A stretch of DNA of 41,802 bases, from IMG/VR virus record IMGVR_UViG_3300045988_137960. One strand, 5' to 3'. Source of the stretch: a virus. The notes beneath the pieces were generated by a model. The model was not told where the DNA came from. It did not search any database and was given only the letters and a program-made list of their open reading frames with translations. Shown here one piece after another: positions 9,811 to 27,732 of this stretch. The position numbers and the translations under genes are program-made. Each line of letters opens with the position of its first letter. The stretch's first letter is position 1.

Positions 9811-9856
9811 GCCGACTCCCTATTTGAACAGGAAGGGGGCCTGATGACCCCCTTCG

Positions 9857-12800: not shown

Positions 12801-14689
12801 GTCTCGATATTGGACATCGTCTTGCTGATGGCGGTGCCGGCGGACTCGGCGTTCTGGCCGGTCGACGCGATGGACGAGGCCCATGCGAGGATGTCCGGCG
12901 TGGTCATGCCGATGATGGAACCCATGGAGCCGATGCGCTTGGCGATGTCGATGATCTGCGACTCGGTTGATGCGCCGTTGTTTCCTAGGCGCACGAGCGA
13001 GTCGGAGAACGCCGGCATGTGGCTCTCGTCGAGGTCGTCGAGGATGTTCGCGAGCTGTCCGAGGGCAGTCGCGGCCTCGTCGGCATTGAGGTCGGTGGCG
13101 ACGTCGATGTTCGAGACGGTCGTCGCGAACGTGTCGAGCGCCTCTGTGGCGATTCCAAGCTCGCCGCCGATTGCCTGGATGGACAGGATCTGCGACGCCG
13201 AGGTGACGTGCGTGTTGGAGAAGTCGATTGCTGCCTGCTTGAGGCTCTCGAAGTCCTGCTCGGTGCCGTTGACAGTCTTTCGCATGTCGCGGTAGGCGGA
13301 GTCCATGTCGTTTGCGGCACTGATGGACGCGCCGCCGAGCGCGACCATCGCCGGGGTCAGCGTGGCGGACAGCGTCATGCCGAGCGACTTCACGGTGGAC
13401 CATCCGAACTCGACGGTACCTCCCATGTTGCGCATGGATGCAGCAAGTTCGTCGACCTGAATCTTGGCTTCCTCGGCGGACTGCTTGACCTCGATGTACT
13501 CCTTCTGCATGTTCGCGAAGTCTCGGGCTGATGCCGCCTTCTTCTCCTCCGCGGACAGCTCGTACACGGCGGTCTTGGCCCTGAGAACGGCTTCGGCCGC
13601 CTGCTTGTAGTCGTCCTCGGTGGACTTGGCTAGCTGGTCGACCTGCTTCATGCGGCTCTCGGCGTCCTGTAGAGCCGCCTTGGCGTACTGAAGCTCCGAA
13701 TTGATGCCTGACCAGTGCTCGGTGGCCTTCTGCGCCTCGATTGCGACGTTCTTGGTGGAGGCGGCGACCTTGTCGACGCCGGACTCCTCGTACGCCTTCA
13801 GCTTGTCGCCGAGAAGCTCGGCCTTGCGCTTGGCAAGCTCGGCCGCCTGAGCGAGGTCGTTCAGCTTGCGCTCGGCCGCCATCATGTTGTTCGGGTTCAT
13901 CTTGAGGGCCGCATCGCAGCGCTTCGCGTCGGAGATGAGGTCCTTGATGGATGCGTCCATCTTCTCGACCTCGCGGTCGGTCGTGATGAGCCCCTGGGCC
14001 AGGCTCGACGGGATATTGAGCTTGCCCATCTGCGCGGACAGGCTCCTCACGTCGGACGTGGTAACGTCGATCTCGTTCTCGAGATGCTTCAGCTCGGCCA
14101 CCTGCTTGGCGGCCTCGTTCTCGTCGAACGCCTGCTGCCACGCGGCACGCATCTCCAAGATGGCGTCGATGTCGTCATCCGTGACGAGTCCGACTTCCTT
14201 CAGCTTGGCGACGGTCGTCTCGAACTCCTCGTTGGAGCTGCGGATGGCGTCGGAGAGCTTGAAGTCGTCGGGGAACTCATCCATCGCGCGTGCGGCCTTG
14301 TTGATTGGGCCGTACATCTTGTCGAGTTCCGCGTTGAGCGCGTTGTATCGCTTGAGCGCGAGCTGTGCGTTCAGGGCCGCGTTCTCGGTGTGCTCCGCAA
14401 GCTCCTTGACGCTTCGGTCGGTGCCGGCGGCAGTCGCCCTGGACAGCTGCTCGTGTGCCTCCTTGAGCGTCCTGAGCTTGAGGGCGGCCTCCTGTGCGCG
14501 GTCCTTGAGAAGTTCGTACTTTCGCGTGACGTTGGTCAGGCGGCCGGGGTCGAGGTTGGAGGCCTTGGTGATGGCCTTGAGCTGCCTTTGAGTCTCGGCA
14601 CCGGCCTTGGTAGCCGCCTTGAGGGCAGCGGTGAGCTTGGTGGTGTCGCCGCCGATCTTGATGGTCAGTCCGCGATATGCGTCCGCCAT
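9857..14689 (-). CDS. Tail tape measure protein
   Basis: 1610 aa, beginning MADAYRGLTIKIGGDTTKL, helical and Ala-rich throughout. It sits in the canonical position after the chaperone pair. Confidence 0.9.
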   Translation of the reverse strand: MADAYRGLTIKIGGDTTKLTAALKAATKAGAETQRQLKAITKASNLDPGRLTNVTRKYELLKDRAQEAALKLRTLKEAHEQLSRATAAGTDRSVKELAEHTENAALNAQLALKRYNALNAELDKMYGPINKAARAMDEFPDDFKLSDAIRSSNEEFETTVAKLKEVGLVTDDDIDAILEMRAAWQQAFDENEAAKQVAELKHLENEIDVTTSDVRSLSAQMGKLNIPSSLAQGLITTDREVEKMDASIKDLISDAKRCDAALKMNPNNMMAAERKLNDLAQAAELAKRKAELLGDKLKAYEESGVDKVAASTKNVAIEAQKATEHWSGINSELQYAKAALQDAESRMKQVDQLAKSTEDDYKQAAEAVLRAKTAVYELSAEEKKAASARDFANMQKEYIEVKQSAEEAKIQVDELAASMRNMGGTVEFGWSTVKSLGMTLSATLTPAMVALGGASISAANDMDSAYRDMRKTVNGTEQDFESLKQAAIDFSNTHVTSASQILSIQAIGGELGIATEALDTFATTVSNIDVATDLNADEAATALGQLANILDDLDESHMPAFSDSLVRLGNNGASTESQIIDIAKRIGSMGSIIGMTTPDILAWASSIASTGQNAESAGTAISKTMSNIETAVAQGGDSLDAFARTSQMSAEDFKAAWDKDPTAVLKAFVEGLKGIEESGGSADATLVDLGITSVRQKQAVEGLMQTVEGLDDNLTMSRDAWSGVSDEWGDAGDAAAEASKKAEGLSGSISRIKNAGENAASALGDALAPVFSNIADVAGKAAKEFSNADVGFRQAAAGAGLLVAAAGPALSIIGTAGTGARQLKDHLSKLNSASANVAKRAAAMADELSGLTAKEKLAVTGTKLLAGASNVLKTALPIAAIGLAVGVVAALVGEYQKWKAEQELVAGALRDVSDIVSEHNGSVQGLGDTYATLKDEINDVYESMKATGEAFGESLDDIGTNSILLDNYIGTIERLTTKSQLSEYEQELLAEAVKKYNEITGDSVEVTDAAAGALSKSTSEIKANADAWELNARKQAYSKVAAEYMEEEARATIKAQKAQEAYNKAYGDKEKWIDNYLAGLDESVHMTREQAASLYETVSANSAEKEALDKATKAQEKANDNAQKALELSESLTENVNNLAGAMEGIAPQFEQFGTGIANSLALGISSGKVTIDQAMEFVKNGVNSAVASLPPEMQPLGLSIAELLAQGISDGSISVQDATSAMKDVADGDLSGLKDVFSKHGIECPQALADVIEQYSNLPADATQAMKDAVLLKLDDELVTKCKEAGINIDEGLAEGIRNGTLSPEASAALGQDVIDRAKEILGVHSPSTVFDAIGGDLDAGLQNGIDEGREGPISAMSSIGQALSAALNFLAPEMNGKGATASSELANGAGSNLGFVASTAARLAGNAARMGDVGDMRGKGATASGNFGSGIGSQAWSVAQKAASIAAKAATMTAAGDTYRSGSHLASNFAAGINAGIGWVSRAATNIANAARSILQFSVPDKGPWSGAERGGKRSGLHLAQNFAAGMVSGVGSVSKAAETLAYAASVDAYAGNVSSRLSGGQSYSSVSESKTVNYYVTVDGRTVQANPGIEDAVQTLIKSTGRFYKMK

Positions 14690-14709
14690 GGGTCACCATG
14701 CCCTTCCTG

Positions 14710-14922
14710 TTAACCGAGCAGCCGGTCTATGTCTTCTAGGGTTGCGTCGCGCGTGCCGTCGGAGCTGTTCCGCTGCGGCACGGTCGACTGGAGGAACATC
14801 AGCAGCTCCGGAAGGCGCATCGTCATCAGGCGGTCCCACGGGATGCCCGCGCGGAGGCCGGATGAGAAGATTCGCGTGTACCGGAGCGGGTCTTCGCCCG
14901 ATTCGCCGGACTGCGCCGGCAC
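14710..14922 (-). CDS. Possible C-terminal extension ORF of the tail assembly chaperone (T-like), in the +1 frame relative to 14927-15403
   Basis: 70 codons. The only start is a GTG fused to AAGGAG with no spacing. The frame is open about 18 codons upstream into the preceding ORF. Confidence 0.4.
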   Translation of the reverse strand: MPAQSGESGEDPLRYTRIFSSGLRAGIPWDRLMTMRLPELLMFLQSTVPQRNSSDGTRDATLEDIDRLLG

Positions 14923-14926
14923 TCCT

Positions 14927-15403
14927 TTAAGAGCGGGTGTGAAACAGGCCGCGCTGCGTCTCCTCGAACGCAGCGAAGTTGGTGTCGCGCATGTTCACCT
15001 GGCCGAGGCCCATGAGCCACTGCTTGAACGTCGGGCAGGCGTCGCCGGCGACGTCGCAGGCCGTCTTGCGCATGGCCCACATGACGCGCAGCGTCGCGTC
15101 CCATCGGTCCTTCGTGTAGTCGATTACGGTGTTGACGTACTGGGGGAAGGCCCTGCGCACGAGTGCGGACGTGGTCTTCGGAAGCGGCTTCTGCTTACCG
15201 GTCTTCTCGTCGACGGGCATGTTCTCGGCGAGCCTGTTCTCGACGAACTCGGCGGTCACCACCTCGCCGCTGTCATCACCGAGATCGACCCTGCCGTAGA
15301 AGTCAGCGATGAGGGACACGCCGAACTCCTGCTCATACAGGTAGGTCGTGTACGCGGAGCAGATGTACTCAAGCTCCCCGGTGCCGTCGATGTCGTATTT
15401 CAT
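14927..15403 (-). CDS. Tail assembly chaperone (G-like)
   Basis: 158 aa and acidic, lying between the major tail protein and the tape measure. Confidence 0.6.
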   Translation of the reverse strand: MKYDIDGTGELEYICSAYTTYLYEQEFGVSLIADFYGRVDLGDDSGEVVTAEFVENRLAENMPVDEKTGKQKPLPKTTSALVRRAFPQYVNTVIDYTKDRWDATLRVMWAMRKTACDVAGDACPTFKQWLMGLGQVNMRDTNFAAFEETQRGLFHTRS

Positions 15404-15436
15404 GCTGTTTACCTTTCCTTGTAGGCGTTAAAAGAG

Positions 15437-15481
15437 ACACGCGGGCCTCTCGCCCGCCTACTCGACGAGAGGTCCGCGTGT
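15437..15481 (-). terminator. Second of two tandem hairpins after the major tail gene
   Basis: 16-bp stem (15437-15452 with 15466-15481, one G:T pair), followed on the minus strand by CTCTTTT. Confidence 0.5.
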
Positions 15482-15494
15482 TTCTTTCAAGAGA

Positions 15495-15520
15495 AAAGGG
15501 GCACCCGCAGGTGCCCCTTT
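15495..15520 (-). terminator. Factor-independent terminator/attenuator after the major tail gene
   Basis: aaaggggcacc/ggtgccccttt forms an 11-bp stem with a 4-nt loop, 12 nt after the stop at 15532. Confidence 0.65.
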
Positions 15521-15531
15521 CAGCTGTTTGT

Positions 15532-16098
15532 CTAGGCCGAAGCGGTCGGAAGCAGGACGCTATCGAAGAAGGAGTCGTACTTGGCCTTGTCGGTGGACTT
15601 GACGGTGGCCTTGGAGATGCTCTTGGCCTCGCCATTGACCTGGAGCTGCTTGCCTGCGGCGGAGAAGCTGTAGGTGTCGGTGTCGGGGTCGGTCGTGTCC
15701 TCCTTGGTGTTCGCCTCGGTGTTGGGGCGGGACAGCTTGCAGCTGTAGTAGACGCAGCGGCGCTTGTAGGGGTCGCCGTTGACCTCGAACATCAGGGCGA
15801 ACTCGACGCCGGTGCTGTCCATGTCCTCGAGCAGGAGTCCGCTGTCGTTGATGTATCCGAGCAGGTCGATGAGCATCTGCTCCTCGGTGTCGGCAAGCTC
15901 AAGCTCGCCGGAGATGCTGGAGGAGTCGACGAAGGTGGCGTAGACGACGTCATCGGCGTAGAACTTGGTCACGTCGCCGTCGTACTCGACGGTGAGCTTC
16001 TTAGCGCCGGGTGCCTTGACGGGCGTCTTGTACTTGGACTTCTCGGGGTCCCAGACGGCATAGTGGACGTTCTTGAGTCCGTACTTAACCTTTGCCAT
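15532..16098 (-). CDS. Major tail protein (phi13/TP901-like)
   Basis: 188 aa: MAKVKYGLKNVHYAVWDPEKSKYKTPVKAPGAKKLTVEYDGDVTKFYADD... Confidence 0.8.
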   Translation of the reverse strand: MAKVKYGLKNVHYAVWDPEKSKYKTPVKAPGAKKLTVEYDGDVTKFYADDVVYATFVDSSSISGELELADTEEQMLIDLLGYINDSGLLLEDMDSTGVEFALMFEVNGDPYKRRCVYYSCKLSRPNTEANTKEDTTDPDTDTYSFSAAGKQLQVNGEAKSISKATVKSTDKAKYDSFFDSVLLPTASA

Positions 16099-16101
16099 TG
16101 G

Positions 16102-16569
16102 TTAGTTCCCTTCCTTGGTAACTGTGAAGTAATAGGAGACGATTCGCGCGTGCTCCGACTCAGACCAGTCCTCGTACACGCGGACGGGTCCGAACGCCCG
16201 TTTTAGGGCCATCAGAAGGGCTGTCTCGACCACCTGGTCGGCTTGCCTCTCGATGAGTTCGACCCGGTACCTCGGCATCGAGTACCAGTTGTCGTCGTCC
16301 GCGTACTGCTCTCCGCTGGAGTCGAGCGAGTAGACGAAGAACGGCGGCTTGACCTTCGACCCCTCCGGGTACGCCTGGTGCGTTCCGGCGAGGCCGGTTG
16401 ACCTGCACGCCTCGTAGACGAGCCTGTCGTACGACCCGAACAGCTCGAGAGCCTCTCCGATGTGCGCAGTCGGCTCGACGACCTCGACGTTCGCGCCGAT
16501 GACGATTCCGCCCTCGGTCTTTCCGAGCGGTCCGGTCAGTGTCGCGCCGATGACTCCCACGTTGCTCAT
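16102..16569 (-). CDS. Tail-completion/tail-terminator-position protein
   Basis: 155 aa from MSNVGVIG. The ATGA overlaps the upstream stop. The ORF-track N-terminal extension is Arg/Pro-rich nonsense. Confidence 0.55.
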   Translation of the reverse strand: MSNVGVIGATLTGPLGKTEGGIVIGANVEVVEPTAHIGEALELFGSYDRLVYEACRSTGLAGTHQAYPEGSKVKPPFFVYSLDSSGEQYADDDNWYSMPRYRVELIERQADQVVETALLMALKRAFGPVRVYEDWSESEHARIVSYYFTVTKEGN

Positions 16570-16949
16570 AGGTCGGCCTCCAGCCTCTGGACGAGCGATT
16601 CGTATGCCTTCTGGAAGCCGCGCTCTGCCGCCGGGGCGACGTGGGGCCTTCCGGGCACGCGGCCGCCGCCGATGGTGGCGTGGCCCTTCTCGAGGAGGTG
16701 CGGGAGGCCCGGTTTCGTCGAGTAGACGTGCGACTCGGGCTTCTCCTCGGTCCCCTCGACCCTGTAGCGGATCGACTTGCTGTAGTCGCCAGTGCGGACC
16801 GGAGCGCCATCGCGCCACGCCTGCTTTGCCTCCTCGGAGCCGTCCCTTACGGACTCGAGCAGGTCGTCGCACGATACGGCCTTGATGTCTCCGAATATCT
16901 CGTCGAGTGCCGATGCGAAGGCGTCGGCCCCGACAGTCCTGCTAGCCAT
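16566..16949 (-). CDS. HK97 gp10-like head-tail protein
   Basis: APVRTGDYSKSIRY...PGLPHLLEKGH matches the gp10-family pattern (P-x-x-TG-x-L/Y-x-x-SI ... E-x-G). Confidence 0.7.
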   Translation of the reverse strand: MASRTVGADAFASALDEIFGDIKAVSCDDLLESVRDGSEEAKQAWRDGAPVRTGDYSKSIRYRVEGTEEKPESHVYSTKPGLPHLLEKGHATIGGGRVPGRPHVAPAAERGFQKAYESLVQRLEADL

Positions 16950-17250
16950 TGGAGACGTGCCTCCCCAGCTGTAGCTTCACGAACTCGCCCGAGACTGAGG
17001 CGTTCTCGACGTCGTACTGGACTCCGTCGAACTCGACCTCGCTCTCGCCTGAGTACTCGTCTGCCCTGAGCTGGATGAGCGCGTCGGCGCGGAGGCCGAC
17101 GTCGAACGACGTGGCCCATAGGTCGCTGCCGACGGTGAAGCGGTTGCAGTAGCGCATCCTGCGCTCCGGCTGCCCCTGAATCACGTTTCCGGCCTCGTCC
17201 TGGACCATGTCGGGCCACGCGAGCAGGAAGCAGACGTCGTTCCACCTCAT
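16942..17250 (-). CDS. Head closure/head-tail joining protein
   Basis: 102 aa in the canonical position between the gp6-like and gp10-like genes. Confidence 0.65.
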   Translation of the reverse strand: MRWNDVCFLLAWPDMVQDEAGNVIQGQPERRMRYCNRFTVGSDLWATSFDVGLRADALIQLRADEYSGESEVEFDGVQYDVENASVSGEFVKLQLGRHVSNG

Positions 17251-17531
17251 TTGCCATCGCCACCGTAGGACGTCGGCGAGTTGAGGATGTCCACGACCGT
17301 CTGCCTGTATGCGTCCTCGAAGCGGGACGCGTCGCTGTTGTCGTAACCGAACCTCGACTTCGCGAAGAGGACGACCGCCATCTTCGCGAGCGGGTCGGAA
17401 TCGACGAGGGCCTCGTCGACGCCAACGCGGTTAAGGTCGCGCTTGGCCGCCTCGATGAGGCCCTGAATCTCCGTATCGAAGGCATCGGAGGTGACGCGCA
17501 GGGCCACCTTGACCTCGTCTAGGAGAGCCAT
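17247..17531 (-). CDS. Head-tail connector (gp6-like DNA-packaging protein)
   Basis: 94 aa, MALLDEVKVALRVTSDAFDTEIQGLIEAAKRDL, the typical N-terminus of the family. It lies directly after the capsid gene. Confidence 0.7.
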   Translation of the reverse strand: MALLDEVKVALRVTSDAFDTEIQGLIEAAKRDLNRVGVDEALVDSDPLAKMAVVLFAKSRFGYDNSDASRFEDAYRQTVVDILNSPTSYGGDGK

Positions 17532-17551
17532 GCCGCGTCACCTCCCATGGG

Positions 17552-18850
17552 CTAAGACGTCTTCTTGGGGGCGGAGATGACGAGCAGACCGTTGGTGTCG
17601 CCGAGCTTGCCGTCGACGACGGTCTGCATCTTGAGCTTGGTGACGTTCTTGTCCTCGTCGTTCCAGCGGACGGAGCGCATGCCCATCTGCTGGTTGACGA
17701 TGTAGTTGGACAGGTTGCCGAACAGGATGCAGGGGGTGTCGGCTGCGCCGCCCTTGGCATCCTCGTAGTTGGGCAGGATGTCCTCGGGGACGATGTTCAC
17801 GTTCTTGCCCATCAGGCGGTAGGACTCGCTGTGAGCGCCGTCGAGGCCGTAGTTGACGCGGGCGACCGGCTGGCCGTTGGCGTCGACCATGCCGTCGACG
17901 TAGGTGTCCCACGTGGCCTGGGTCATGGTCCACTCGCCGCGGCTGCGGTACGGGGCCTTGACCTTCTTGAGGATGTTGGCCCAGCCTGCCCACGTGCCGA
18001 TGGCCTTCTCGTCGAAGGTCACCTTGTTGTCGGCGGTGAGTCGGGGGTCCTTGAGGATGCCGAGCGGCATACCGGAACCGCTGCCGTTCACGCCGGCTGC
18101 CTCGAGGGCGCGGACCATGGCCTCTGCGCACTTCTCGGGGAACTGGCGCTTGAACATGTCCATGGTGGTCACCTGGGACAGGAAGCTCTGAGCGACCTTG
18201 ACCTCGAGCATGTAGTAGAGGAAGGAGATGCGGCTGGGGTCGGTTGCCTTCTGGGTGTCGGAGGGCTTGGCCTCGGTGACCCAGCTGGCGGTGGGCAGGT
18301 AGTCCCAGATGCTGATCTCAAGGCCGCCCTGGACGTTCATCTTGGTGAACTTGGGCCAGATGGTGCCGTACTCGGACATCTTCTGGATGATGGTGTTCGA
18401 GAGGGTGGTCGGGATGAAGTGCGGGACGTCGGAGGTCTGCGTGAAGGCGTCGGCGCGGACGTTCTCGGGGACCATGCCGCGGGTCACGAGGCCGTCGGGG
18501 TACTCGATGCCGCGGACGGTGTAGTCGTAGAAGGCGCGGTTGTAGTCCTCGGTGTCGAACGGGTCCTCGTTGCGGGTGACGTAGACGTCGGGGTTGGCGG
18601 TCTGAGCGCCGCCGGTGACGAGTGCGCCGGCACCGTTGGCGACGGCAGCGACACGGGAGGAGCGGAGTGCGTTGGCCTGGTTGCGGCGCTCGACCTCCTC
18701 CTGGATGAGGCGGACCTCCTCGTTGAGGACGTCCATGCCGACGGTGCTGTCGGCGTTGTCGAGTTCGGCGACTACCTCGGCACGGCGGTGCTCGAGGGAG
18801 GCTTCATCGAGGGCGCGGTACTGGGCCGCGTCCATGGGGATGAACTCCAT
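17552..18850 (-). CDS. Major capsid protein, HK97 fold
   Basis: 432 aa with an N-terminal coiled delta-like region followed by a capsid body. It follows the prohead protease. Confidence 0.9.
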   Translation of the reverse strand: MEFIPMDAAQYRALDEASLEHRRAEVVAELDNADSTVGMDVLNEEVRLIQEEVERRNQANALRSSRVAAVANGAGALVTGGAQTANPDVYVTRNEDPFDTEDYNRAFYDYTVRGIEYPDGLVTRGMVPENVRADAFTQTSDVPHFIPTTLSNTIIQKMSEYGTIWPKFTKMNVQGGLEISIWDYLPTASWVTEAKPSDTQKATDPSRISFLYYMLEVKVAQSFLSQVTTMDMFKRQFPEKCAEAMVRALEAAGVNGSGSGMPLGILKDPRLTADNKVTFDEKAIGTWAGWANILKKVKAPYRSRGEWTMTQATWDTYVDGMVDANGQPVARVNYGLDGAHSESYRLMGKNVNIVPEDILPNYEDAKGGAADTPCILFGNLSNYIVNQQMGMRSVRWNDEDKNVTKLKMQTVVDGKLGDTNGLLVISAPKKTS

Positions 18851-18866
18851 TTTCTTGTTCCTTTCG

Positions 18867-19472
18867 TTAGAGCAAACGTAGCTTGAGCGCGGCCGCCTGA
18901 CGCTGCCTGCGCTCGTTCTCGCGGCGCACCAACTCCTGGTGCTCCTGCTCGATCACTCCGTCGAGGTAGGAACGCGCGTGAATGTCTGTGTCTTGGTCGG
19001 CCGGGATGGATACGGCGGATACGTCGAACACCTTCTCGACCTTGGTGATGTAGCTGGTGCGGGTTTTCTCGTCCCACTCCCAGCCGTCGGGGGCAACGTT
19101 GAAGCCCCAGCTCATCTTGTCGATGAGCCCGTTGCTGATGGCCTCGTACAGGTCGCGTCCGGCCTGCGATCCGCTTAGGTCGGCACGGACGAACAGGCCG
19201 TGCTCGTCGACGGTAAGCTCAAGCGTGCCGTTCTTGAGTCGCGCCAGCGTCTGGCCGCAGTGGTTGAGCTGGAAGATGACATCCGACATGTCGGCACCGG
19301 CCATTGCCGTGGAGCGGATGCACTCCTTCGCGCGCCTGAAGTCGTACGGGACGTCGAAGGTGGTCGCGTAGCCCTCGACCGTGTACGCGCTCCTGCGGTC
19401 CTCTGTTTCCGCGACCGCATGGAAGTTGCCAGCGAAGCTGCGGTACTCGCGCTGGTCGGGTTTGTAGGGCAT
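18867..19472 (-). CDS. Prohead protease (HK97 family)
   Basis: 201 aa, ...VEGYATTFDVPYD...FQLNHCGQTLAR...MSWGF...VSAVSIPA. It lies between the portal and capsid genes. Confidence 0.85.
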   Translation of the reverse strand: MPYKPDQREYRSFAGNFHAVAETEDRRSAYTVEGYATTFDVPYDFRRAKECIRSTAMAGADMSDVIFQLNHCGQTLARLKNGTLELTVDEHGLFVRADLSGSQAGRDLYEAISNGLIDKMSWGFNVAPDGWEWDEKTRTSYITKVEKVFDVSAVSIPADQDTDIHARSYLDGVIEQEHQELVRRENERRQRQAAALKLRLL

Positions 19473-20764
19473 CAGTCGTCCTCCTCATTCTTTCCCTTGG
19501 TGTCGACGTCGTTGTAGATGGCGTCGTCGCCCTCGAGGTCAAGCTCGCCCTCGCCGTAGCTGTTGCCCTTCGGGCGTGCCACGAGCGGGGTCTTTCCGCC
19601 CGTCTGCACCTGGACGTTTCCGTCGGCGTCGAACACGACGTACTCGCCGCGCTCGATGAAGACGTCGCCTCCCGGCACGGGCGGCAGCTGTAGGACCTCG
19701 CGCGACTCGTTGATGGTCATGACGCGGCGGTCGAGCATGTCTCGAATCATGTTTCGCTTGGATGCGTTGGTTGCGTACTCCAGCCTGTTCGCGCTGAAGC
19801 AGATGCCGTTGCCGTGGCGGCGCTCGATGGGCGTGAACAGCATCTGGCTGAGGCCCTCTCCGAGCTGGACCGCGAACGGCTCAATCTGGCTCTCGTAGAA
19901 CGCGCCGAACGTCTCCTCGGAGTACTTGGACTGGATGATGTCCTCGTTGATTCCGAAATAGTTGTAGACGTTCGTCTCGATGCGCTCCATCTCTCCGGAG
20001 TCGATGGTGTAGTTCTGAGGCTCCACCTGCTTGATGTTCTCGAAGGTGTTGTCGTAGAGCATCAGGCCCGAGGTGTTCTTGGAGCTTAGGTTCGTCTCCG
20101 AGAACTCTTTTCGCTTCCTGTCGAGGTCCTCCGGCCTGACGGAGCCGTTGATAGCGCCGATGAACTGAATCTTGGCGGAGTTCTTGATTGCGACCTCCTG
20201 CGCCTGCTCCTGGTAATCCATGAGCGCGAGCGTCGAGTTCAGCGCGTCGTTGGCGCTGCCGAAGAAGTCGCTCTCATACTGGAAGCGCGTCAACAGGCAC
20301 ACGTACCTGAGTTCGATTGCCATCGTGTCGCCGGAGTCGAGGTAGAACCTAATCCAAGGCTCGCCGGCGTACTCGACGACCTCGGCGTGTGCGAACTTCA
20401 GCGGGAACAGGCCCGTGATGTTGCCGCCGGTGTCGAGCGACGGGACGACCGCCGCCGTGTTGTCGTTGAGCATGATGGTCATGAGGCGGGCCAACATCTT
20501 AGGCCAGCTCATGTACTGGTTGGGGGCGGTCAGGATCATGCGCTTGATGCGCGGTTTGGAGTCACCAAGCACCTCGGGCTTGAGTTTCGACGCGAACATG
20601 GCGCTCTTCTCGATTGCTGAGCGCGTGAGGGCCTTCTCGTAGAGCTGTCCGCCCCACGTGGAGAAAGCCGGTGCGTATTCGGTTAGCGTCTTGAACTCTG
20701 GCGCGAGCACAACCTTGGAGGCCTGCTGTGCGTGCTTGGGACGGAAAATATCTAGAAGTCCCAT
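19472..20764 (-). CDS. Portal protein
   Basis: About 430 aa. The ATG at 20762-20764 (MGLLDIF) is preferred over the TTG of the ORF track. ATGA overlaps the protease start. Confidence 0.9.
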   Translation of the reverse strand: MGLLDIFRPKHAQQASKVVLAPEFKTLTEYAPAFSTWGGQLYEKALTRSAIEKSAMFASKLKPEVLGDSKPRIKRMILTAPNQYMSWPKMLARLMTIMLNDNTAAVVPSLDTGGNITGLFPLKFAHAEVVEYAGEPWIRFYLDSGDTMAIELRYVCLLTRFQYESDFFGSANDALNSTLALMDYQEQAQEVAIKNSAKIQFIGAINGSVRPEDLDRKRKEFSETNLSSKNTSGLMLYDNTFENIKQVEPQNYTIDSGEMERIETNVYNYFGINEDIIQSKYSEETFGAFYESQIEPFAVQLGEGLSQMLFTPIERRHGNGICFSANRLEYATNASKRNMIRDMLDRRVMTINESREVLQLPPVPGGDVFIERGEYVVFDADGNVQVQTGGKTPLVARPKGNSYGEGELDLEGDDAIYNDVDTKGKNEEDD

Positions 20765-20804
20765 GACCCAAATGTAAGGCAACGACGCCGGCAGTCAAGA
20801 CGAA

Positions 20805-20840
20805 GGTTCCTTCGCCGAAGAAACCTGCGGCGAAGGAACC
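20805..20840 (-). promoter_or_regulatory. Strong hairpin between terL and portal
   Basis: ggttccttcgccg/cggcgaaggaacc forms a perfect 13-bp stem with a 10-nt loop. Confidence 0.6.
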
Positions 20841-20845
20841 TGCTG

Positions 20846-22579
20846 CTACATGGACGCCTCGTAGTCCTCCCAGTGCCGCTTGAGGCACACGTAGGCGCAA
20901 ATCTCGGCGGCCCACCCGTCGATGCGGCCGGACGAGCCGTTGGCCTTGACGGGCTTGATGTTGTCGTTGGTGTCCGTGATTATGCCGACGTTCATGCGGC
21001 ACCACTGGTTGACGGGGTTGTTGTTGTCGACGATGCCCTTGCGGTCATAGACGGTCCTTATCTCCTTCATGGGGATGGACAGGGTCTGCGGGCCGAATCG
21101 GACCTCCTCGCTGCGCTTCTTGCCGACGAACTGGCGGGCCATGTCCTTCCACGAGTCGTCCTGGAGGTGCCACGGGTCGTATCCCATGGCGAACGGGTAG
21201 ACGTTGAACTCGTCCCTGAGCTGCTGCATCCACTCGAACACGACTCGGTGGTCGATGGTGTTTCCGGGCACCACGCGCACCAGCCCGGCGTCAATCCACC
21301 TGTCGTACGGCACGTTGTCGCGGTTCTTGCGCAGGCCGCTCTTGCGGTGGTGCTCGAGCTGCGACTCCGGTATCCAGTACATAGACATCTCGTAGATTTT
21401 GGGGTCGTCCGGCCTCATCATGAGCGCCTGGGCGCTGGTGAGGTCGATGGTGTCAGACGCGTCGTAGCCGACGATGCAGTAGCGGAAGCCCATGTCCTTC
21501 CAGTCGAACTCCTCGCGGTTAACGGCCTGCTCGAACGTGAGCCATGCCGACGCGCGGTTCTCCGGCATGTTGAAGTCCTTGGTCAGGACCGTCGGAAGGT
21601 AGCTCGGGTCGTTCTTGGCCTTCTGCACCTGGGCGCGTAGGTACTCGACCTTCTTGACTGTGCCGAGGCCAGGGTTGGCCTTGACCCAGCACGACTCGTT
21701 GGTCCACTCCGCGCGGCTGTCCAGCTCGTAGACGAACGGTAGGAAGTGGTCGTCCTCGAACTGCCCGTCGAGCCAGCGCGACGCGTAGTCGTACTGGTCG
21801 TCGAACAGGTTGTCTCGGTTGAAGCCGTTGGTCGTCAGCTCGAGAATCATCGGCTGGTCGCGTGCGGCGGTGGCCTGCTTGACGAGGTCGAACAGGTCGC
21901 GGTTCACGATGGCGTGAAGCTCGTCGACCACGGCGCAGTGTACGTTCAGGCCGTCGAGCGAGCGCGTCTGCGACGACAGCGGCGTGTAGTATCCGCGGTT
22001 CGAGTCGAAGATGAGGCCGTCCTGGTGTCGCGACGGGATGATGCCCTTGTGCAGGCGCTTGTTGAGCGCCGGCGACTGCGAAACCATCGACAGCATCGCG
22101 CCGTACATGAGGGACGCCTGGTCCTTGTTCGTGGCGACGGAGTAGAGCTGCGGGGCGAACTCCCCGTCCTTCGTCATGAGGTACAGCAAGATTGCCGCGC
22201 CAAGCTCGGTCTTACCGTTCTTACGCGCGATGATGAGCAGGACCTCGTTGAACTGCCTCATGCCGAGTTCGTCGACGAAGCCGAACGCCGTCTCGATGAA
22301 GGCAAGCTCGTAGTCCTCGAGGACGAGGTGCTTTCCGACCTTGCCCTGCGAGATGAAGATGAACCTCTCGATGAACTTGACGGGCCTCAGCGCCTTCTCG
22401 GCATCGTAGTGCCAGCACTTGTACCCGTCGTCGAAGCGGTCGATCAACTTCTTGGCGAGCTTGATGACCTTCTGGCTCGTCGTTATCTTGCCGTCGATGA
22501 CGTCCTGGAAATACCTCTTTGCCTCGAGGCCGTCGCGCTCGGGAGGCACGTACCCGCCGGAGGGCTTCCTAGAGTTCAT
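20846..22579 (-). CDS. terL: Terminase large subunit
   Basis: 577 aa with an ATPase N-terminal half (IIARKNGKTELGA, CAVVDELH) and a nuclease C-terminal half. Confidence 0.9.
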   Translation of the reverse strand: MNSRKPSGGYVPPERDGLEAKRYFQDVIDGKITTSQKVIKLAKKLIDRFDDGYKCWHYDAEKALRPVKFIERFIFISQGKVGKHLVLEDYELAFIETAFGFVDELGMRQFNEVLLIIARKNGKTELGAAILLYLMTKDGEFAPQLYSVATNKDQASLMYGAMLSMVSQSPALNKRLHKGIIPSRHQDGLIFDSNRGYYTPLSSQTRSLDGLNVHCAVVDELHAIVNRDLFDLVKQATAARDQPMILELTTNGFNRDNLFDDQYDYASRWLDGQFEDDHFLPFVYELDSRAEWTNESCWVKANPGLGTVKKVEYLRAQVQKAKNDPSYLPTVLTKDFNMPENRASAWLTFEQAVNREEFDWKDMGFRYCIVGYDASDTIDLTSAQALMMRPDDPKIYEMSMYWIPESQLEHHRKSGLRKNRDNVPYDRWIDAGLVRVVPGNTIDHRVVFEWMQQLRDEFNVYPFAMGYDPWHLQDDSWKDMARQFVGKKRSEEVRFGPQTLSIPMKEIRTVYDRKGIVDNNNPVNQWCRMNVGIITDTNDNIKPVKANGSSGRIDGWAAEICAYVCLKRHWEDYEASM

Positions 22580-22925
22580 CGAAGCCGTCGTCCTCGGGGA
22601 CCTCGCGCTCGTTGTCCTTGCAGAACTTCTTGATTGCCGACGCGACCGCGATGGTCTTGGTCACGAGGCGCTGGTACGCGATGAAGTACTTTGACTCCTC
22701 CTTGACCTCGTGGCGGTTGCCGGAGCCTCCGCGCTCTGTAACCTCGACGATGCCGTAGGTGTCGACCATCGCCTTAAGCTCGTCCATCTGGTCGAGCATC
22801 CACACGTACTCCTCGAGCATGTCCTTCGCAAGCGCGAGGTTGAGGCCGTCGAGGTTGCTGATGAGCGCCGCAAGCTCCTCGACGCGCCCGTCCTTCTTCT
22901 TAGTCAAGCGGAACCGCCCTTCCAT
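22569..22925 (-). CDS. terS: Terminase small subunit (P27 family-like)
   Basis: 118 aa. It overlaps terL and is preceded by the HNH gene. Confidence 0.7.
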   Translation of the reverse strand: MEGRFRLTKKKDGRVEELAALISNLDGLNLALAKDMLEEYVWMLDQMDELKAMVDTYGIVEVTERGGSGNRHEVKEESKYFIAYQRLVTKTIAVASAIKKFCKDNEREVPEDDGFDEL

Positions 22926-23247
22926 CTGGTCCGAAGGCCATGCGAGGCCTGTAGTCGTCTGGGTAGTGAATCTCTGCGTGGCAGTCGCGGCACACGCGCA
23001 TGAGGTTCGACTGGTCCAGCGAGATGCGCGAGTCCGTGATGTTCTCGGGCGTCAGGTAGACCTTGTGGTGGACTATCTCGGCCGGGACGAGCCTGCCGGT
23101 AGTCTCGAAGCACCTCTGGCACATCCCGGACGGGCACACGGCACCGGACGGGTACGTGATGGTGCGCTCCATGGCGAGTTTCCTCGCCCTCTCCCAGCCT
23201 TTCGACTTGTAGAAGCGCCTAGCGAACTCCCTAGCCAGGGGAATCAC
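22900..23247 (-). CDS. HNH endonuclease (packaging-associated)
   Basis: CQRCF...EIVHHKV...NLMRVCRDCHAEIH. GTG start. Confidence 0.85.
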   Translation of the reverse strand: MIPLAREFARRFYKSKGWERARKLAMERTITYPSGAVCPSGMCQRCFETTGRLVPAEIVHHKVYLTPENITDSRISLDQSNLMRVCRDCHAEIHYPDDYRPRMAFGPDGRAVPLD

Positions 23248-23760
23248 CTACTTTCATTCGTCTTATTCATTTAGCCGTACTCTACGTCCGTAATATACGG
23301 CAGATTGTCCAAAAATTGAGTTTTTCAAATTCGGTTTTCGCATTAAATTGACTCCCCGCGCCGGACCCCCTCCGGGCACCAATGCCTATATACCCGGGGG
23401 GATGGTGGGTTACAGAAACTATCGGTATTTATGCAATTATTCAATTCCTGGGCCGTTCTATGCACTGCTACAGACGGCCCGCCTACCTGCTGCTATGCTG
23501 CTCTACCTGCGGAAACGTTGCCGGCCTGCCGCCTGCCGGCCTATGATCCAGGGCCACGGCGTTATGCACGACGGCGGCCAGTATGCCGGCCGTCCTAAAA
23601 AAGTTGGGGAAAGTGCTGGACAGATCAGCGGCAACGGTTGTAAGGTCTTGCCAACGGCTGGAGCAACGGGCAGAACATCCGGCGGCCAGTCAAAGAAAAG
23701 GCCGGCACCGCCGCAACGGATACCGGCCAACGTCCCAACGTAGTAAAGGAGATTGAGACA

Positions 23761-25428
23761 ATGAACGAGTATAGCACCATCAACAAGACAGCCGAGGCGG
23801 CCGGGCCGCTGGCTGACCTCGAGGCCGTGGAGCGCGTGAGGAATGGCATAGTTAAGGCCGCTACGCAACACTGGCGCTGCCATATCATGGAGCGCTCAAA
23901 CCTCGACCAGGCGCTGCGCTATGCCGAGCTTAACGACCAGCTGCGCAATATGAGCGGCTATATTGTTGCTTGCCCGGTGTGCGGCCGCCCGGTTAGGTAC
24001 GACCACCTTGCAGAGGACGCCTACGGCGACGACATGTGCCCGGACTGCTTAATAGCCGCCGGTTACGTCAAATGCGACCACTGCGGAGAGTGGATCGACG
24101 AGGACGAGACGACCGAGGTTGACGGCGAAACGTGGTGCTCAGCGTGCGTAGATAGCGACGCCGAGCCGTGCGATCACTGCGGCGAATACCACAACAACTC
24201 GGATAACCTGGAGACTGTGCACGTCTGGATCAGCTATCGTTGTGACACGATTGACGAGGCATGGTGTGAGAGCTGTCGAGATGATAGCGCGTATACCTGC
24301 GACAGCTGCGGGGAGTTTTACGCCGGTTTCGGAGACTGCTACGGCGAAACCCTAGTACACGGCCGCGACGGCGAGGAAAACTACAGGCACCTGTGCCCGT
24401 CGTGCGAGGATCAGCTGCCCCACTGCTACGGCTGCGGGAGCGCACTTGAAACCGACTGCTACCGGGACGCCTACGGCGACGCTTACTGCTGCGACTGCAA
24501 GCCGGAAAGCAAATACCTACAGGGCTACGACCACACCTACGCAAGCAACTACTACCGCGCAAAGGACGACCCGACGCCCGCCGGCCTGTATCTGGGCGTC
24601 GAGCTTGAAACCGAGGCATACCGAACCGAGAACCCGGAAGCGCTGGCCAGGGACGTTATCATGGCCGTTGGAGACGAGCGCGTCGTGTGCAAGGAGGACG
24701 GAAGCCTAACGGACGGCTGCGAGATCGTAACGCAGCCCATGAGCGCGGCCTACCATCTGGCACCGCTCGACGACCTTGGCGGCCGCCGGCTCTGGGACGT
24801 GATCCTAGACACGTGCGCCGAGCATAACGCCCGCTCGCATAACGGCGTTTTACGTGACTACCAGGCGGCCGTAAAGCCCGGCGTTAGCGATACAGTTGCA
24901 TACGTTCGCGACGTTGCCCTATACCTCGCCAATGATGCCGAGGTACGCCGGTGCGGCGGCCTGGCAGTGTCGCGCCTGGCGGCCGACATGCTGCGCGACT
25001 CGTCGCAGGGCTCACGCCTGGCGATCATGGACGGCCACGGCAACGTACGCCTAACCGGTGCCGGCTGGGAGGACGTGCAACCGGGTATCCATGCGAGTAA
25101 CGACAGCTGGCGGCCGTTCGAACCGGTATACCGCTGCGGATCGTATGCGTACGGCTGGGATAGCCCGGACCGCTGGCCGGACTGGGAAGACCTCGACGGC
25201 CTGGAGCAGCCTATGCTGTGGGACGATTGGCCCACGGCGGCGGCCGTCCGGTATGCCGACGAGACGTACACAGTTAGCGACGTTTTCGAGGAGTACTACA
25301 CCTGGAACAACTACCGCGAGTTCTGCGAGGAGTATACCGAGTGCCGGTACCACTGCGCACGCTGCGGATCATTGCCGTACTGCGCGACGGACGACGACCT
25401 TAAACGCCTGGGCGGCCGTCGTGGCTAG
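23761..25428 (+). CDS. Multi-zinc-ribbon protein with an amidoligase-like (Amidoligase_2 / GS-like COOH-NH2 ligase) core signature
   Basis: 555 aa with an AAAGGAG RBS. It has five tandem CxxC(G)...CxxC units (CPVCG..CPDC, CDHCG..CSAC, CDHCG..CESC, CDSCG..CPSC, CYGCG..CCDC). These are followed by GLYLGVELETE and KEDGSLTDGCEIVTQP. It is the only long plus-strand gene that is not antisense to a better ORF. The coding call is firm; the function is tentative. Confidence 0.7.
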   Translation: MNEYSTINKTAEAAGPLADLEAVERVRNGIVKAATQHWRCHIMERSNLDQALRYAELNDQLRNMSGYIVACPVCGRPVRYDHLAEDAYGDDMCPDCLIAAGYVKCDHCGEWIDEDETTEVDGETWCSACVDSDAEPCDHCGEYHNNSDNLETVHVWISYRCDTIDEAWCESCRDDSAYTCDSCGEFYAGFGDCYGETLVHGRDGEENYRHLCPSCEDQLPHCYGCGSALETDCYRDAYGDAYCCDCKPESKYLQGYDHTYASNYYRAKDDPTPAGLYLGVELETEAYRTENPEALARDVIMAVGDERVVCKEDGSLTDGCEIVTQPMSAAYHLAPLDDLGGRRLWDVILDTCAEHNARSHNGVLRDYQAAVKPGVSDTVAYVRDVALYLANDAEVRRCGGLAVSRLAADMLRDSSQGSRLAIMDGHGNVRLTGAGWEDVQPGIHASNDSWRPFEPVYRCGSYAYGWDSPDRWPDWEDLDGLEQPMLWDDWPTAAAVRYADETYTVSDVFEEYYTWNNYREFCEEYTECRYHCARCGSLPYCATDDDLKRLGGRRG

Positions 25429-25579
25429 CCTGGCCGTAGCCGTGCGCCGGTGGCTGGATCAGCCGGCGCACGTGAGCCGGCGGGCCGTGGCCGCGCTGGC
25501 CGTGGCTGTCGTCGTCCTGGCCGTGGCCGTCGTCGTGCAGACGATCAGGCTAGACAATATAATCTGCTATTACTACTAA
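25421..25579 (+). CDS. Possible 52-aa transmembrane peptide (GTG start overlapping the upstream stop)
   Basis: VASLAVAVRRWLDQPAHVSRRAVAALAVAVVVLAVAVVVQTIRLDNIICYYY. The RBS is weak. A 9-bp GC hairpin at 25582-25604 follows. Confidence 0.3.
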   Translation: MASLAVAVRRWLDQPAHVSRRAVAALAVAVVVLAVAVVVQTIRLDNIICYYY

Positions 25580-25625
25580 CCGGCGGCCGCCTGGAGCGGC
25601 CGCCATCGTTTGGAGCTGATGCCAA

Positions 25626-25757
25626 ATGACCGTCGAGTTCTGGGACGCGCTAATACGGCTGCTGTTTCATCCCTGGATATTCCCGTTTACTCTAATCCTG
25701 ATTCTATCGTTTATCGCAATAATCATTGCAATACTCAATATCCTGCTGGGCGGCTAG
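25626..25757 (+). CDS. 43-aa very hydrophobic peptide
   Basis: MTVEFWDALIRLLFHPWIFPFTLILILSFIAIIIAILNILLGG. The local DNA is visibly AT-richer. GGAG lies 10 nt upstream, and the ORF ends 28 nt before a terminator. Confidence 0.5.
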   Translation: MTVEFWDALIRLLFHPWIFPFTLILILSFIAIIIAILNILLGG

Positions 25758-25784
25758 CTCTACCCCATATCAATAAAACGGCGA

Positions 25785-25820
25785 AACGCCCGACACCTCA
25801 ACCGGTGCCGGGCGTTTTTT
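25785..25820 (+). terminator. Factor-independent terminator closing the plus-strand island
   Basis: 13-nt arms at 25785-25797 and 25804-25816 with one mismatch, a 6-nt loop, then tttttt. Confidence 0.7.
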
Positions 25821-26198
25821 ATTGCCGCTCCAGTGCTACCGGATCAGCCCGCGCGGCCGTCGTCCTGGGCGCTCCAGGCGGCCGCGCGTCGTCCTGGAGA
25901 TCGTAGGACAATCCAGGCGGCCACCCGGCCACGCCTCGCACACAAACGCAGGCGCTCGACGGCTTCCGGCCGCTGGGACGATATAGGCCCACGGCCACGG
26001 CCGTATATAGCCGTCTGGGCCGCTCTAATGCCTATTTTAGGGCTGTTTTTGGGCCGGCGCGACCGAGTACAGCCACGGCACGACAGCGGGCCGTGTAGGC
26101 CTATCTGGTGGCCCCTGGTGGCGTTTTCGCAGGTCAAAAGCCATGCCGGCGGTTTTATGCACGCCGAAAAAGTGGATATAATACGCGCAAGGCCACCC

Positions 26199-26237
26199 AA
26201 AAAGCGCGTGCGGCCTGCGGAAACGCGCAGTGCACGC
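26199..26237 (-). terminator. Candidate terminator of the early/replication operon
   Basis: Nested GC stems (26204-26209 with 26223-26228; 26206-26211 with 26232-26237). They are followed on the minus strand by a U-run (plus-strand aaaaa 26199-26203). Confidence 0.4.
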
Positions 26238-26258
26238 CGCGCCGCGCAGCGGAAAGCG

Positions 26259-26501
26259 TCAGCGCTCGGGCGGCTCGTCCGCGCCCTCCTCGTCGGCGGC
26301 GGCATCGGCGCGGTCCGCCATCGCCGCCTGCGCCGCTATCGCGGCCATCGCCGATGTCCCGACGGCCTGCGCCGCCTCGGCCACCTCGAGGAAGTTCGCG
26401 CCCAGCTCGACCGCCGAGTCCGCGAACGCGGAGATGAGCGCGTGGACCTTCTCGCGGTCGTAGATGCCGCGTCCCAGCTCGGCCTCCTGCTCGGGCGTCA
26501 T
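26259..26501 (-). CDS. Hypothetical acidic Ala-rich protein (80 aa)
   Basis: MTPEQEAELGRGIYDREKVHALISAF... ATGA overlaps the upstream HTH gene. Confidence 0.5.
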   Translation of the reverse strand: MTPEQEAELGRGIYDREKVHALISAFADSAVELGANFLEVAEAAQAVGTSAMAAIAAQAAMADRADAAADEEGADEPPER

Positions 26502-26758
26502 CCGGCCACCTCCTCGATGCCGCAGCGCATGGCCCGCGCGATGGCGCACCACGTCGCGAAGTTGCCGGCGCTCGCCCCGCTCCTCAGCGCGGTGATGGTC
26601 CTCGTGGAGATTCCCGTCCTCTCGGACAGCTCGGCGACGGTGGTTCCCGTCTCCCTCATCCTCGCCTTCAGCTTGGCCCCGGAGCTGGGGTCCTTCACCG
26701 GCGAGAGCGGTGTGGTGCAGGCCATGGCCCTCCTTCTTCTGTCAATGTGCTGCGGCAT
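26498..26758 (-). CDS. XRE-type HTH DNA-binding protein
   Basis: KLKARMRETGTTVAELSERTGISTRTITALRSG is a helix-turn-helix. The start is either 26758 or MACTT at 26725. Confidence 0.65.
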   Translation of the reverse strand: MPQHIDRRRRAMACTTPLSPVKDPSSGAKLKARMRETGTTVAELSERTGISTRTITALRSGASAGNFATWCAIARAMRCGIEEVAG

Positions 26759-26893: not shown

Positions 26894-26912
26894 CGACTCG
26901 GGCGCAGCGCGC

Positions 26913-27030
26913 GATTTTGATTTCGATTTTCAAATTGTGATTTTGATTTCGATTTCGATTTCGATTTCATTTTCCGATTTTGATTTCCGATTTCGATTTC
27001 GATTTCGGTTCCGGGGGCCGATTTCGGTTC
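26913..27030. repeat. Hexamer/dodecamer tandem array (GATTTC)n and (GATTTTGATTTC)n
   Basis: About 8 gatttc units and 3 gattttgatttc units, plus two gatttcggttccgg units, in a non-coding gap next to the replication genes. Confidence 0.9.
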
Positions 27031-27048: not shown

Positions 27049-27732
27049 TCACCACCCGAACGACTTGTCCATCTCGGCGTACACGTCGCGGGTCATGCGG
27101 TGCCTGCCCGTGTCGACCTTGAGCGGGCGGCACATGCCGAGGATGCGGTTGTACGTGCGCCTGTCGGCCACGTCGCCCTCTCCCGCCAGCTGCTCCCTCG
27201 TGAGGTTGCTCGTGACGATGGTCGGACGGTGCAGCTGGTAGCGCATGTCGACGATGCTGTAGACCGTCTCCTTGCCGAAGCTGCTGGTGCGCTCGGCCCC
27301 GAGGTCGTCGAGGACCAGCAGCTCCGCGTCGGTGAGCAGGCGGACGGCCGTCGGCACCTCGTCGTACCTGCGGCTCAACACCCACGGCATCGAGCGGCAC
27401 ACGACGCGCATCCCGCGGTCGAGCGCCTCGTTGGCGATGCAGCAGGCGAGGAACGTCTTGCCGCTGTCGGGCGGACCGAACAGGAGCAGCCCGCTCCTCT
27501 GGGCCGGCAGCGTGGCGGCGTACCTGCGGCACTTGTCGACGAGGTCGCCGCCGTACTTCCCGTCGTCGTGGGCGAAGTCCATCAGGCGCATCTCCGGGGC
27601 GACGAACGCCGTCTCGGCGCGGGCCTCCAGCGAGGCGCACCGGCATTTCACCGGGACCTTCACCGGACGGGTCCCGTCGTAGACGACGCGCTCGACGGGG
27701 TGGCCGCACTTGGGGCACATCTCGACGTCCAC
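27049..27732 (-). CDS. DnaC/IstB-like AAA+ helicase loader with an N-terminal zinc ribbon
   Basis: CPKCG...CRC; Walker A is GPPDSGKT and Walker B is LLVLDDLG. Confidence 0.85.
   Translation of the reverse strand: MDVEMCPKCGHPVERVVYDGTRPVKVPVKCRCASLEARAETAFVAPEMRLMDFAHDDGKYGGDLVDKCRRYAATLPAQRSGLLLFGPPDSGKTFLACCIANEALDRGMRVVCRSMPWVLSRRYDEVPTAVRLLTDAELLVLDDLGAERTSSFGKETVYSIVDMRYQLHRPTIVTSNLTREQLAGEGDVADRRTYNRILGMCRPLKVDTGRHRMTRDVYAEMDKSFGW

Follow-up and report, generated by a model that had tools for sequence, protein, structure and literature searches.

An 885-bp in-frame deletion fuses a zinc-ribbon amidoligase gene to its class-II glutamine amidotransferase partner in a probable Collinsella phage

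The DNA considered here is a viral sequence of 41,802 nucleotides (nt) from IMG/VR (record IMGVR_UViG_3300045988_137960), referred to in its entire length as the window. The subject of the analysis is a plus-strand cassette in this window whose largest open reading frame (ORF), at 23761-25428, encodes 555 amino acids (aa). We conclude, with very little doubt, that this ORF is a fusion of a zinc-ribbon amidoligase with its class-II glutamine amidotransferase (Gn-AT) partner, created by a deletion of 885 bp. The cassette is very probably a remnant of a known type of phage amidoligase/Gn-AT cassette, deletion-fused and with both activities lost. An initial annotation, based on the DNA sequence, had presented the product as one protein of several parts, with a separate Trp/Asp-rich region at its C-terminus and a domain combination fitting no described system. 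Instead, residues 1-362 derive from the amidoligase gene, the supposed separate region (residues 363-555) is the tail of the partner gene (Gn-AT residues 109-301), and the combination is an artefact of the in-frame deletion. The 555-aa ORF itself was correctly recognized and is preceded by a ribosome-binding site (RBS), GGAG, at 23748-23751, 9 nt 5' of the ATG. The cassette comprises the following features:

23248-23760: divergent intergenic region between the start of the HNH gene (minus strand) and the cassette ATG, holding the RBS GGAG
23761-25428, plus strand: chimeric ORF of 555 aa, in which residues 1-362 of the amidoligase run in frame into residues 109-301 of the Gn-AT
23971-24498, plus strand: five CxxC...CxxC zinc-ribbon (LIM-like) units, with ten CxxC motifs from C71 to C246
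24580-24846, plus strand: retained N-terminal half of the glutamine synthetase-like (GS-like) amidoligase domain, ending at SHNG
24580-24612, plus strand: ELETE motif (GLYLGVELETE, aa 274-284), on invariant alignment columns
24691-24738, plus strand: KEDGS...CEIVTQP motif (KEDGSLTDGCEIVTQP, aa 311-326), on invariant alignment columns
24836-24847, plus strand: deletion junction, the surviving single copy of the 12-nt direct repeat CGCATAACGGCG
24847-25428, plus strand: C-terminal 193 residues of the class-II Gn-AT (N-terminal nucleophile, Ntn) partner, whose N-terminal 108 residues, including Cys2, are missing
25582-25604, plus strand: perfect 9-bp GC hairpin GGCGGCCGC-CTGGA-GCGGCCGCC, between the chimeric ORF and the 43-aa ORF
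25626-25757, plus strand: gene for a 43-aa single-pass hydrophobic peptide, with GGAG at 25612-25615
25785-25822, plus strand: intrinsic-terminator-like hairpin (25785-25815) followed by a T-run, closing the cassette

The deletion junction

Close relatives of the phage, on contigs from gut metagenomes and Collinsella metagenome-assembled genomes, have two genes where the window has the chimera. Its origin is demonstrated by one of them, the sister phage L001 (ERZ27265390), which carries two separate plus-strand genes, one encoding 523 aa (10001-11572) and the next encoding 301 aa (11645-12550), flanked by the same HNH/terminase and helix-turn-helix (HTH)/IstB-like neighbours as the window cassette. 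In BLASTN alignments, window positions 13762-24847 correspond to L001 positions 1-11084 at 98.1% identity, and window positions 24836-25885 correspond to L001 positions 11958-13007 at 94.4%. The repeat CGCATAACGGCG occurs in L001 at 11073 and at 11958, both times in codon phase 1 and encoding (S/A)-H-N-G. Exactly 885 nt (295 codons) are missing in frame from the window, which equals the spacing of the repeat copies, and the fusion is in frame because both genes read the repeat as H-N-G in one shared frame. The 12-mer is present twice, 885 nt apart, at the intact loci L001, L003, L004, L088 and L089; the window and L006 have a single copy each. It should be noted that a 12-mer common to both genes is expected by chance in approximately 10% of shuffles; hence, the repeat is a coincidence rather than a device. 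A programmed or phase-variable deletion was likewise considered and rejected, since one repeat copy is destroyed, the event is irreversible, and it is seen in a single cluster of two members.

Comparisons at the protein level divide the ORF at the same point. A search of 5.8 billion protein clusters returned one full-length match to the chimera (P0001, a cluster of 2 members), nine proteins (449-580 aa, 61-95% identity) aligned to nothing beyond the first 56-65% of the query, and three proteins (305-311 aa) aligned to its last 35% alone; the cluster of the intact protein P0002 has 323 members. The window protein tracks the ligase family as far as ...AEHNARSHNG, after which the intact proteins proceed with GNCGLHIHVSR... 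and the window protein with VLRDYQAAVKPGVSDTV..., a stretch that continues ...PLAVAHNG in P0011-P0013 (which start MCIILS) and in the product of the second L001 gene. Among 87 loci with ligase homologues, only the window allele and L006 contain ORFs matching both parental hidden Markov models (HMMs). Both models are covered partially by these ORFs, from 9 to 291 of 457 positions for the ligase HMM and from 105 to 260 for the Gn-AT HMM.

Identity to L001 is 98% upstream of the junction and 94% downstream of it, and the Gn-AT-derived part is closest to another relative, L009 (12 nt differences in 579). From these comparisons the cassette appears to be a mosaic among sister phages.

The two parental enzymes and their pairing

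The intact ligase, represented by the 523-aa protein of L001, begins with a helical region, which is followed by five zinc ribbons and a GS-like Amidoligase_2 domain. An amidoligase relationship had been proposed in the initial annotation, and profile and Foldseek searches recovered it by way of the intact relatives; the outcome named there as overturning the proposal, the lack of such a relationship and a match to a well-known phage function, did not occur. PF12224 is matched at E <= 0.01 by 17 of 21 intact family members (best E = 1e-9; P0002, with 18.8 bits, stays below the cut-off of 22), and PHROG matches include 16683 (unknown function) as well as 2443 and 7469 (both 'amidoligase enzyme'). 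The AlphaFold2 model of P0002 (predicted local distance difference test, pLDDT, 81.6) retrieves GS-like ligases with Foldseek, namely YbdK (1r8g, 4e-6), GmaS (gamma-glutamylmethylamide synthetase), PafA, Dop and GS-III.

The 555-aa protein itself gives no PF12224 match even at E <= 1, and PHROG 16683 matches only aa 273-333. Pfam and NCBIfam scans of it returned sub-threshold noise only (PylC-like_N, E = 0.19; PP0621, E = 0.016), and the PylC-like_N match was rejected as a ligase signal, as it maps to the Gn-AT tail and recurs in the intact partner P0011. No match to the protein was found by tblastn against 50,697 GenBank phages (INPHARED).

What remains of the ligase in the window is its N-terminal portion. 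The five tandem zinc ribbons and the C-terminal Cys cluster recognized in the initial annotation are indeed present, the latter at C522-C541. The ribbon Cys columns are invariant or nearly so in the family alignment, and all of them are intact in the chimera. The resemblance of the ribbons to LIM domains is weak (FHL1, E = 9e-4; the Isl1 LIM domain by Foldseek). Likewise, the first two Amidoligase_2 motifs had been read correctly, and the window protein conforms to the N-terminal patterns G-x-E-L-E and K-x-D-x-S...G-x-E-I-V-x-x-P. One of the ribbon units is missing from each of two sister alleles, P0004 and P0007 (alignment columns ~218-293), and ribbon number thus varies within this lineage.

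The partner (301 aa in L001) is a class-II glutamine amidotransferase, an Ntn hydrolase, with a Cys-rich tail. Its homologues number 633, and some of them are named 'YafJ-type amidotransferase class-II' or 'predicted glutamine amidotransferase'. The M1-C2 pair is invariant in 28 partner homologues, and the invariant positions of the partner are M1, C2, N25, G28, G30, K43, H67, R69, T72, G75, H82, P83, H106, N107, G108, D123, S192 and N193. By resemblance rather than by a residue-level alignment, R69, T72, N107-G108 and D123 look like counterparts of the glutamine-binding residues of GlmS. The partner is a divergent Gn-AT subfamily largely missed by Pfam, with GATase_4 matching 5 of 28 members. 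Since its profile gave a marginal match to PDB sequences (GPATase, E = 0.06), a fold search was needed; the AlphaFold2 model of the intact partner P0011 (pLDDT 82.6) retrieved the GlmS glutaminase domain (1.7e-7; 1xff, E = 1e-6), GFAT, EgtC and PurF with Foldseek. In the window, the HNG at the junction (aa 360-362) and the downstream SDT, which are Gn-AT oxyanion-hole and substrate-binding motifs, are retained.

The initial annotation had reported that the usual partner genes were absent. On the contrary, the C-terminal two-thirds of the Gn-AT lies inside the 555-aa ORF, and a ligase/Gn-AT pairing was found at 62 of 62 informative IMG/VR loci. Ligase relatives are encoded in at least 535 IMG/VR stretches, the best 80 of which were surveyed for pairing. 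In 50 of these 80 a Gn-AT (A2-type) lies immediately downstream on the same strand, with a stop-to-stop gap of -88 to +61 nt in 49. The Gn-AT is nearby in a further 3, contig ends cut 7, and 20 seemed to have no partner. These 20 were set aside as a sensitivity artefact of the first Gn-AT HMM, as all 9 that were sampled carry a canonical class-II GATase adjoining the ligase, above the GATase_6 gathering cut-off. At one locus (L041, 3219-7290), two zinc-ribbon amidoligase paralogues flank a single class-II GATase gene.

Probable loss of activity and alternative explanations

Judging from the motifs and fold elements that the deletion removed, the chimera is almost certainly without ligase or amidotransferase activity. 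The absent ligase invariants past residue 362, as judged over 21 intact members, are C364, G365, H367, H369, R400, R401, N443, T449, E451 and R453, and the CGxHxH, RR, N and T-x-E-x-R motifs all lie within the 885-bp deleted segment. The initial annotation had noted that the later His motif could not be found, and rightly so, because this motif (CGLHIHVSR) was deleted with the 885 bp. On the Gn-AT side, M1, C2, N25, G28, G30, K43, H67, R69, T72, H82 and P83 are absent, and the N-terminal nucleophile Cys was lost with the first 108 residues of the partner. Both folds are also truncated. The chimera lacks ligase strands 366-371 and 449-455 and all C-terminal helices, approximately half of the fold, and the Gn-AT fragment lacks strands 3-7, 29-35, 38-45, 64-68 and 97-107; six of the ~10 core strands of the amidotransferase are lost. 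The only parts that might still fold are the ribbons and the Cys-rich tail. A deletion fusion thus explains the missing His motif, the missing partner and the unrelated C-terminus together.

A second allele in this lineage has also lost the ligase core. In L156 (ERZ27242502 k141_312313; protein P0006), an independent in-frame deletion of 222 nt at 4887-4889 removes KEDGS...CEIVTQP...CGLHIHV from the amidoligase with no obvious microhomology, leaving the ribbons and an intact downstream Gn-AT. This second loss indicates that the enzyme is dispensable in the lineage; taken with the distribution of the cassette and the missing ribbon units of P0004 and P0007, it points to an accessory cassette that is readily deleted. 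The cassette was lost at least twice in a probable Collinsella phage lineage, which suggests that it is dispensable for phage propagation.

Several considerations weigh against regarding the window cassette as an inactivated remnant. The ORF is open and retains an RBS, a downstream peptide gene and a terminator, so the chimera is probably still made, and the loss of activity is inferred from missing motifs and fold elements. When the retained segments are compared with intact relatives, the ratio of nonsynonymous to synonymous substitution rates (dN/dS) is 0.12 and 0.28, no higher than the 0.19 and 0.21 found between intact copies; these values fit a very recent event and do not show decay. 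As a test of relaxed selection they are uninformative, because the deletion is too recent. Both deletion alleles of the lineage are in frame (~1 in 9 by chance; here forced by the microhomology), which could mean, as a weak indication, that the downstream or N-terminal part is under selection. The two records of the junction, in ENA and in Logan, may share one sequencing run and thus represent one or two observations. Finally, no experimental function of the intact cassette has been reported in the literature searched.

Alternatively, the chimera would be a functional new protein, in which the ribbons (perhaps with the Cys-rich tail) bind the normal target of the cassette without catalysis, for example as a decoy, a dominant-negative form or an adaptor, and in which the fusion is kept by selection. 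This explanation is unlikely. It is favoured by the open ORF with its intact RBS, peptide gene and terminator, by the complete set of zinc-ribbon Cys columns, by the assembly of the genome as a complete circle, and by the L156 allele, which also lost the ligase core in frame and kept its ribbons. However, the frame was dictated by the microhomology and not necessarily by selection, and the fusion is found in one 2-member cluster among 5.8 billion. The two records differ by 1 nt, leaving no time for selection to become visible, and half-domains of a GS-like sheet and an Ntn sandwich would, from the structural models, be likely to misfold. There is a slim chance that the chimera and the L156 allele are retained for a catalysis-independent role of the LIM-like ribbons, such as sequestering the normal target of the ligase. 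If this is true, these phages switch between a catalytic version of the cassette and one that only binds.

It is very improbable that the fusion is an assembly artefact and that the genome really carries the intact two-gene cassette. The data are metagenomic, and the ENA and Logan records may share reads. However, the repeat of 12 nt is far below the k of 119 indicated by the contig name and the 119-nt self-overlap of the contig, and at that k an assembler has no means of jumping from one copy to the other. A Logan contig from a separate assembly (ERR1137030, 2825 bp) has the same junction, with a single mismatch over 2808 nt, and the retention of one repeat copy is the classic signature of a direct-repeat deletion.

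The view taken in the initial annotation, of an intact autonomous defence or counter-defence protein of new architecture without Gn-AT or AIG2 partners, draws on the accessory position, polarity and terminator of the cassette and on the first two amidoligase motifs, but hardly survives. It is contradicted by the synteny alignment with L001: the C-terminal third comes from the end of the partner gene, and the deletion took out the catalytic His and Arg motifs. The partner also adjoins the ligase in 62 of the 62 family loci examined.

The fusion of two adjacent genes by a microhomology-mediated in-frame deletion, as observed here, provides a caution for the interpretation of apparently novel multi-domain architectures in phages, and it is revealed only by comparison with intact sister genomes. 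Of modest positive value is the documented pairing of zinc-ribbon amidoligases with class-II Gn-ATs at all 62 informative viral loci. There is a slim chance that the intact family is a new macromolecule-modifying system, for example one acting in counter-defence or superinfection exclusion, and the chemistry of the intact cassette is a long-recognized question.

Genomic setting and comparison with known systems

The flanks of the chimeric ORF bear out most, and not all, of the layout first described for the cassette. The 513-bp divergent region had been called non-coding, and 23248-23760 contains no frame-conserved ORF. ORF 23348-23743, which is out of frame in the window and forms an in-frame N-terminal extension in P0004 and P0008, does not appear to be conserved as coding sequence. 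The promoter of the cassette presumably lies within this region, where a single weak sigma-70-like site (23518-23547) was found at no more than chance level. A search of 23150-26350 against Rfam gave nothing beyond a chance match to Pxr (E = 0.64).

With respect to the tiny hydrophobic peptides initially annotated, one of two was confirmed. The 43-aa ORF is kept in L001 (95% aa identity), L008 (71%) and L009 (67%) with many third-position and synonymous changes, and it has no match in PHROG. The second candidate, 25421-25579, was rejected as a peptide gene: its nucleotides are conserved, the conservation is not in frame, and L009 carries a 72-nt deletion. The surrounding segment (25421-25604) is very GC-rich and almost invariant in nucleotide sequence, with a 21-nt tandem duplication at 25496-25536. 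A small transmembrane peptide as a family-wide third component was also considered and rejected, such peptides being found at 10 of 46 loci compared with 5 of 46 on the control strand. The 9-bp hairpin upstream of the peptide gene is kept in L001 and L008, and half of it is deleted in L009.

The clean terminator described at the end of the cassette is real. Its hairpin and T-run are nearly invariant in L001, L008 and L009, and the hairpin folds with a free energy of -28.9 kcal/mol (z = -5.6), with none of 200 shuffles as good. Its loop is longer than 8 nt, which is why a simple scan for terminators did not pick it up. With an A-run 5' of the stem and a T-run 3' of it, the terminator may be bidirectional and shared with the convergent minus-strand operon.

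The window is identical to ENA contig ERZ27261338, k119_2611. Positions 1-119 are identical to 41684-41802, and because the ends overlap by 119 nt, the contig is probably a closed circle of ~41.68 kb representing a complete phage genome. Nearly all genes are on the minus strand. The claim that the cassette is the sole credible plus-strand coding block was upheld, as every other gene call within 13761-35428 is on the minus strand and the endolysin and holin genes at the left end are likewise minus. Other features of the genome are:

Minus strand: genes for holin, endolysin, tail, HK97-type capsid, S78 protease, portal, TerL, small-terminase-like and HNH proteins, and a replication/recombination module
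26912-27007: array of the hexamer CGATTT, ~15 copies, with higher-order periodicities of 38 and 44 nt
38980-39999, minus strand: SPFH/Band 7 family protein (Pfam Band_7, E = 1e-29), adjoining the tRNA cluster
40031-40983, minus strand: cluster of 10 tRNA genes (Trp, Cys, Arg, Ser x2, Ile, Gly, Asn, Met, Gln) near one genome end

The CGATTT array is flanked by an HTH gene (26498-26758, minus strand) and an IstB/DnaC-like loader gene (27049-27732, minus strand), and its sequence makes it a candidate iteron array or replication origin.

The accessory, opposite-strand and self-terminated character ascribed to the cassette agrees with its terminator, its strand and its distribution. It adjoins the HNH gene in all near relatives (HNH homologues with at least 97% identity), and it was not found in phages with more distant HNH homologues, within the flanking sequence retrieved (at most 6 kb to either side, contig permitting). 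The closest genomic relatives are uncultured Collinsella metagenome-assembled genomes (91% and 65% identity) and Olsenella (34%), which fits the 62% GC content of the window, and Collinsella is the probable host of this phage group. A ligase copy with 96% identity occurs in a bin labelled Sodaliphilus sp. (Bacteroidales; L090, CAVKNR010000297.1); this is probably a mis-binned phage contig, since the other close matches are all Collinsella.

The following history is proposed for the cassette. The ancestral state, kept in sister phages, would have been one plus-strand unit of ligase, Gn-AT, 43-aa membrane peptide and terminator, from which recombination or replication slippage between the CGCATAACGGCG copies would have removed 885 bp to leave a single in-frame 555-aa chimera. 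In the intact cassette, the ligase would activate a carboxylate with ATP as an acyl-phosphate and join it to an amine on a target recognized by the ribbons, and the Gn-AT would either supply NH3 from glutamine or hydrolyse a gamma-glutamyl-type linkage. Possible precedents for the pairing of a GS-like ligase with a hydrolase are PafA/Dop and EgtA/EgtC; in the latter, a GS-like ligase works together with an Ntn hydrolase that targets a gamma-glutamyl handle.

The closest structural comparisons of the intact ligase are with YbdK/GCS2 carboxylate-amine ligases and with PafA/Dop, a Pup ligase and depupylase (1r8g, 4e-6; 4bjr, 2e-4; 9cku, 6e-4), and by analogy with these enzymes we infer ATP-dependent acyl-phosphate chemistry. 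Identity to them is 9-14%, with TM-scores of 0.22-0.31 on the query that are low because the ribbons are extra in the query, and the window copy, unlike these enzymes, is without the C-terminal half of the fold. The intact partner, with its invariant Cys2, is closest in structure to EgtC, the GlmS glutaminase domain and PurF. It differs from them in being a stand-alone protein with a Cys-rich helical tail of ~100 aa; of this protein the window keeps only residues 109-301, which do not include the nucleophile.

As an event, the fusion resembles the microhomology-mediated deletions that form fused pseudogenes in phages and bacteria, and the window likewise keeps one repeat copy. Compared with other direct-repeat deletions there is nothing unusual in it, other than that the repeat happens to encode H-N-G in both enzymes.

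Phage pairs of Amidoligase_2 and class-II Gn-AT genes were reportedly described computationally by Iyer, Abhiman, Burroughs and Aravind in 2009 (Mol Biosyst 5:1636). LUZ24-like Pseudomonas phages carry the same enzyme pair as annotated genes (for example, ORF23 and ORF25 of UFV-P2; PMC3890496), and genes of both enzyme types, amidoligase and amidotransferase, accompany thymidine-hypermodification clusters (PMC8989533). A passage in PMC11318856 attributes to Iyer et al. 2009 a role in cell-wall modification against superinfection. The intact relatives of the window cassette share with these phage and prophage pairs the Amidoligase_2 domain, an adjoining Gn-AT on the same strand and an accessory phage setting. 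They differ in that the ligase adds an N-terminal array of five ribbons, the partner is divergent with a Cys-rich tail, and no ATP-grasp or PF14395 gene is nearby. In the window, moreover, a deletion has joined the two genes and removed both active sites. The kind of cassette is thus already known from computational description, and the window copy is very probably an inactivated member of it and not a new architecture.

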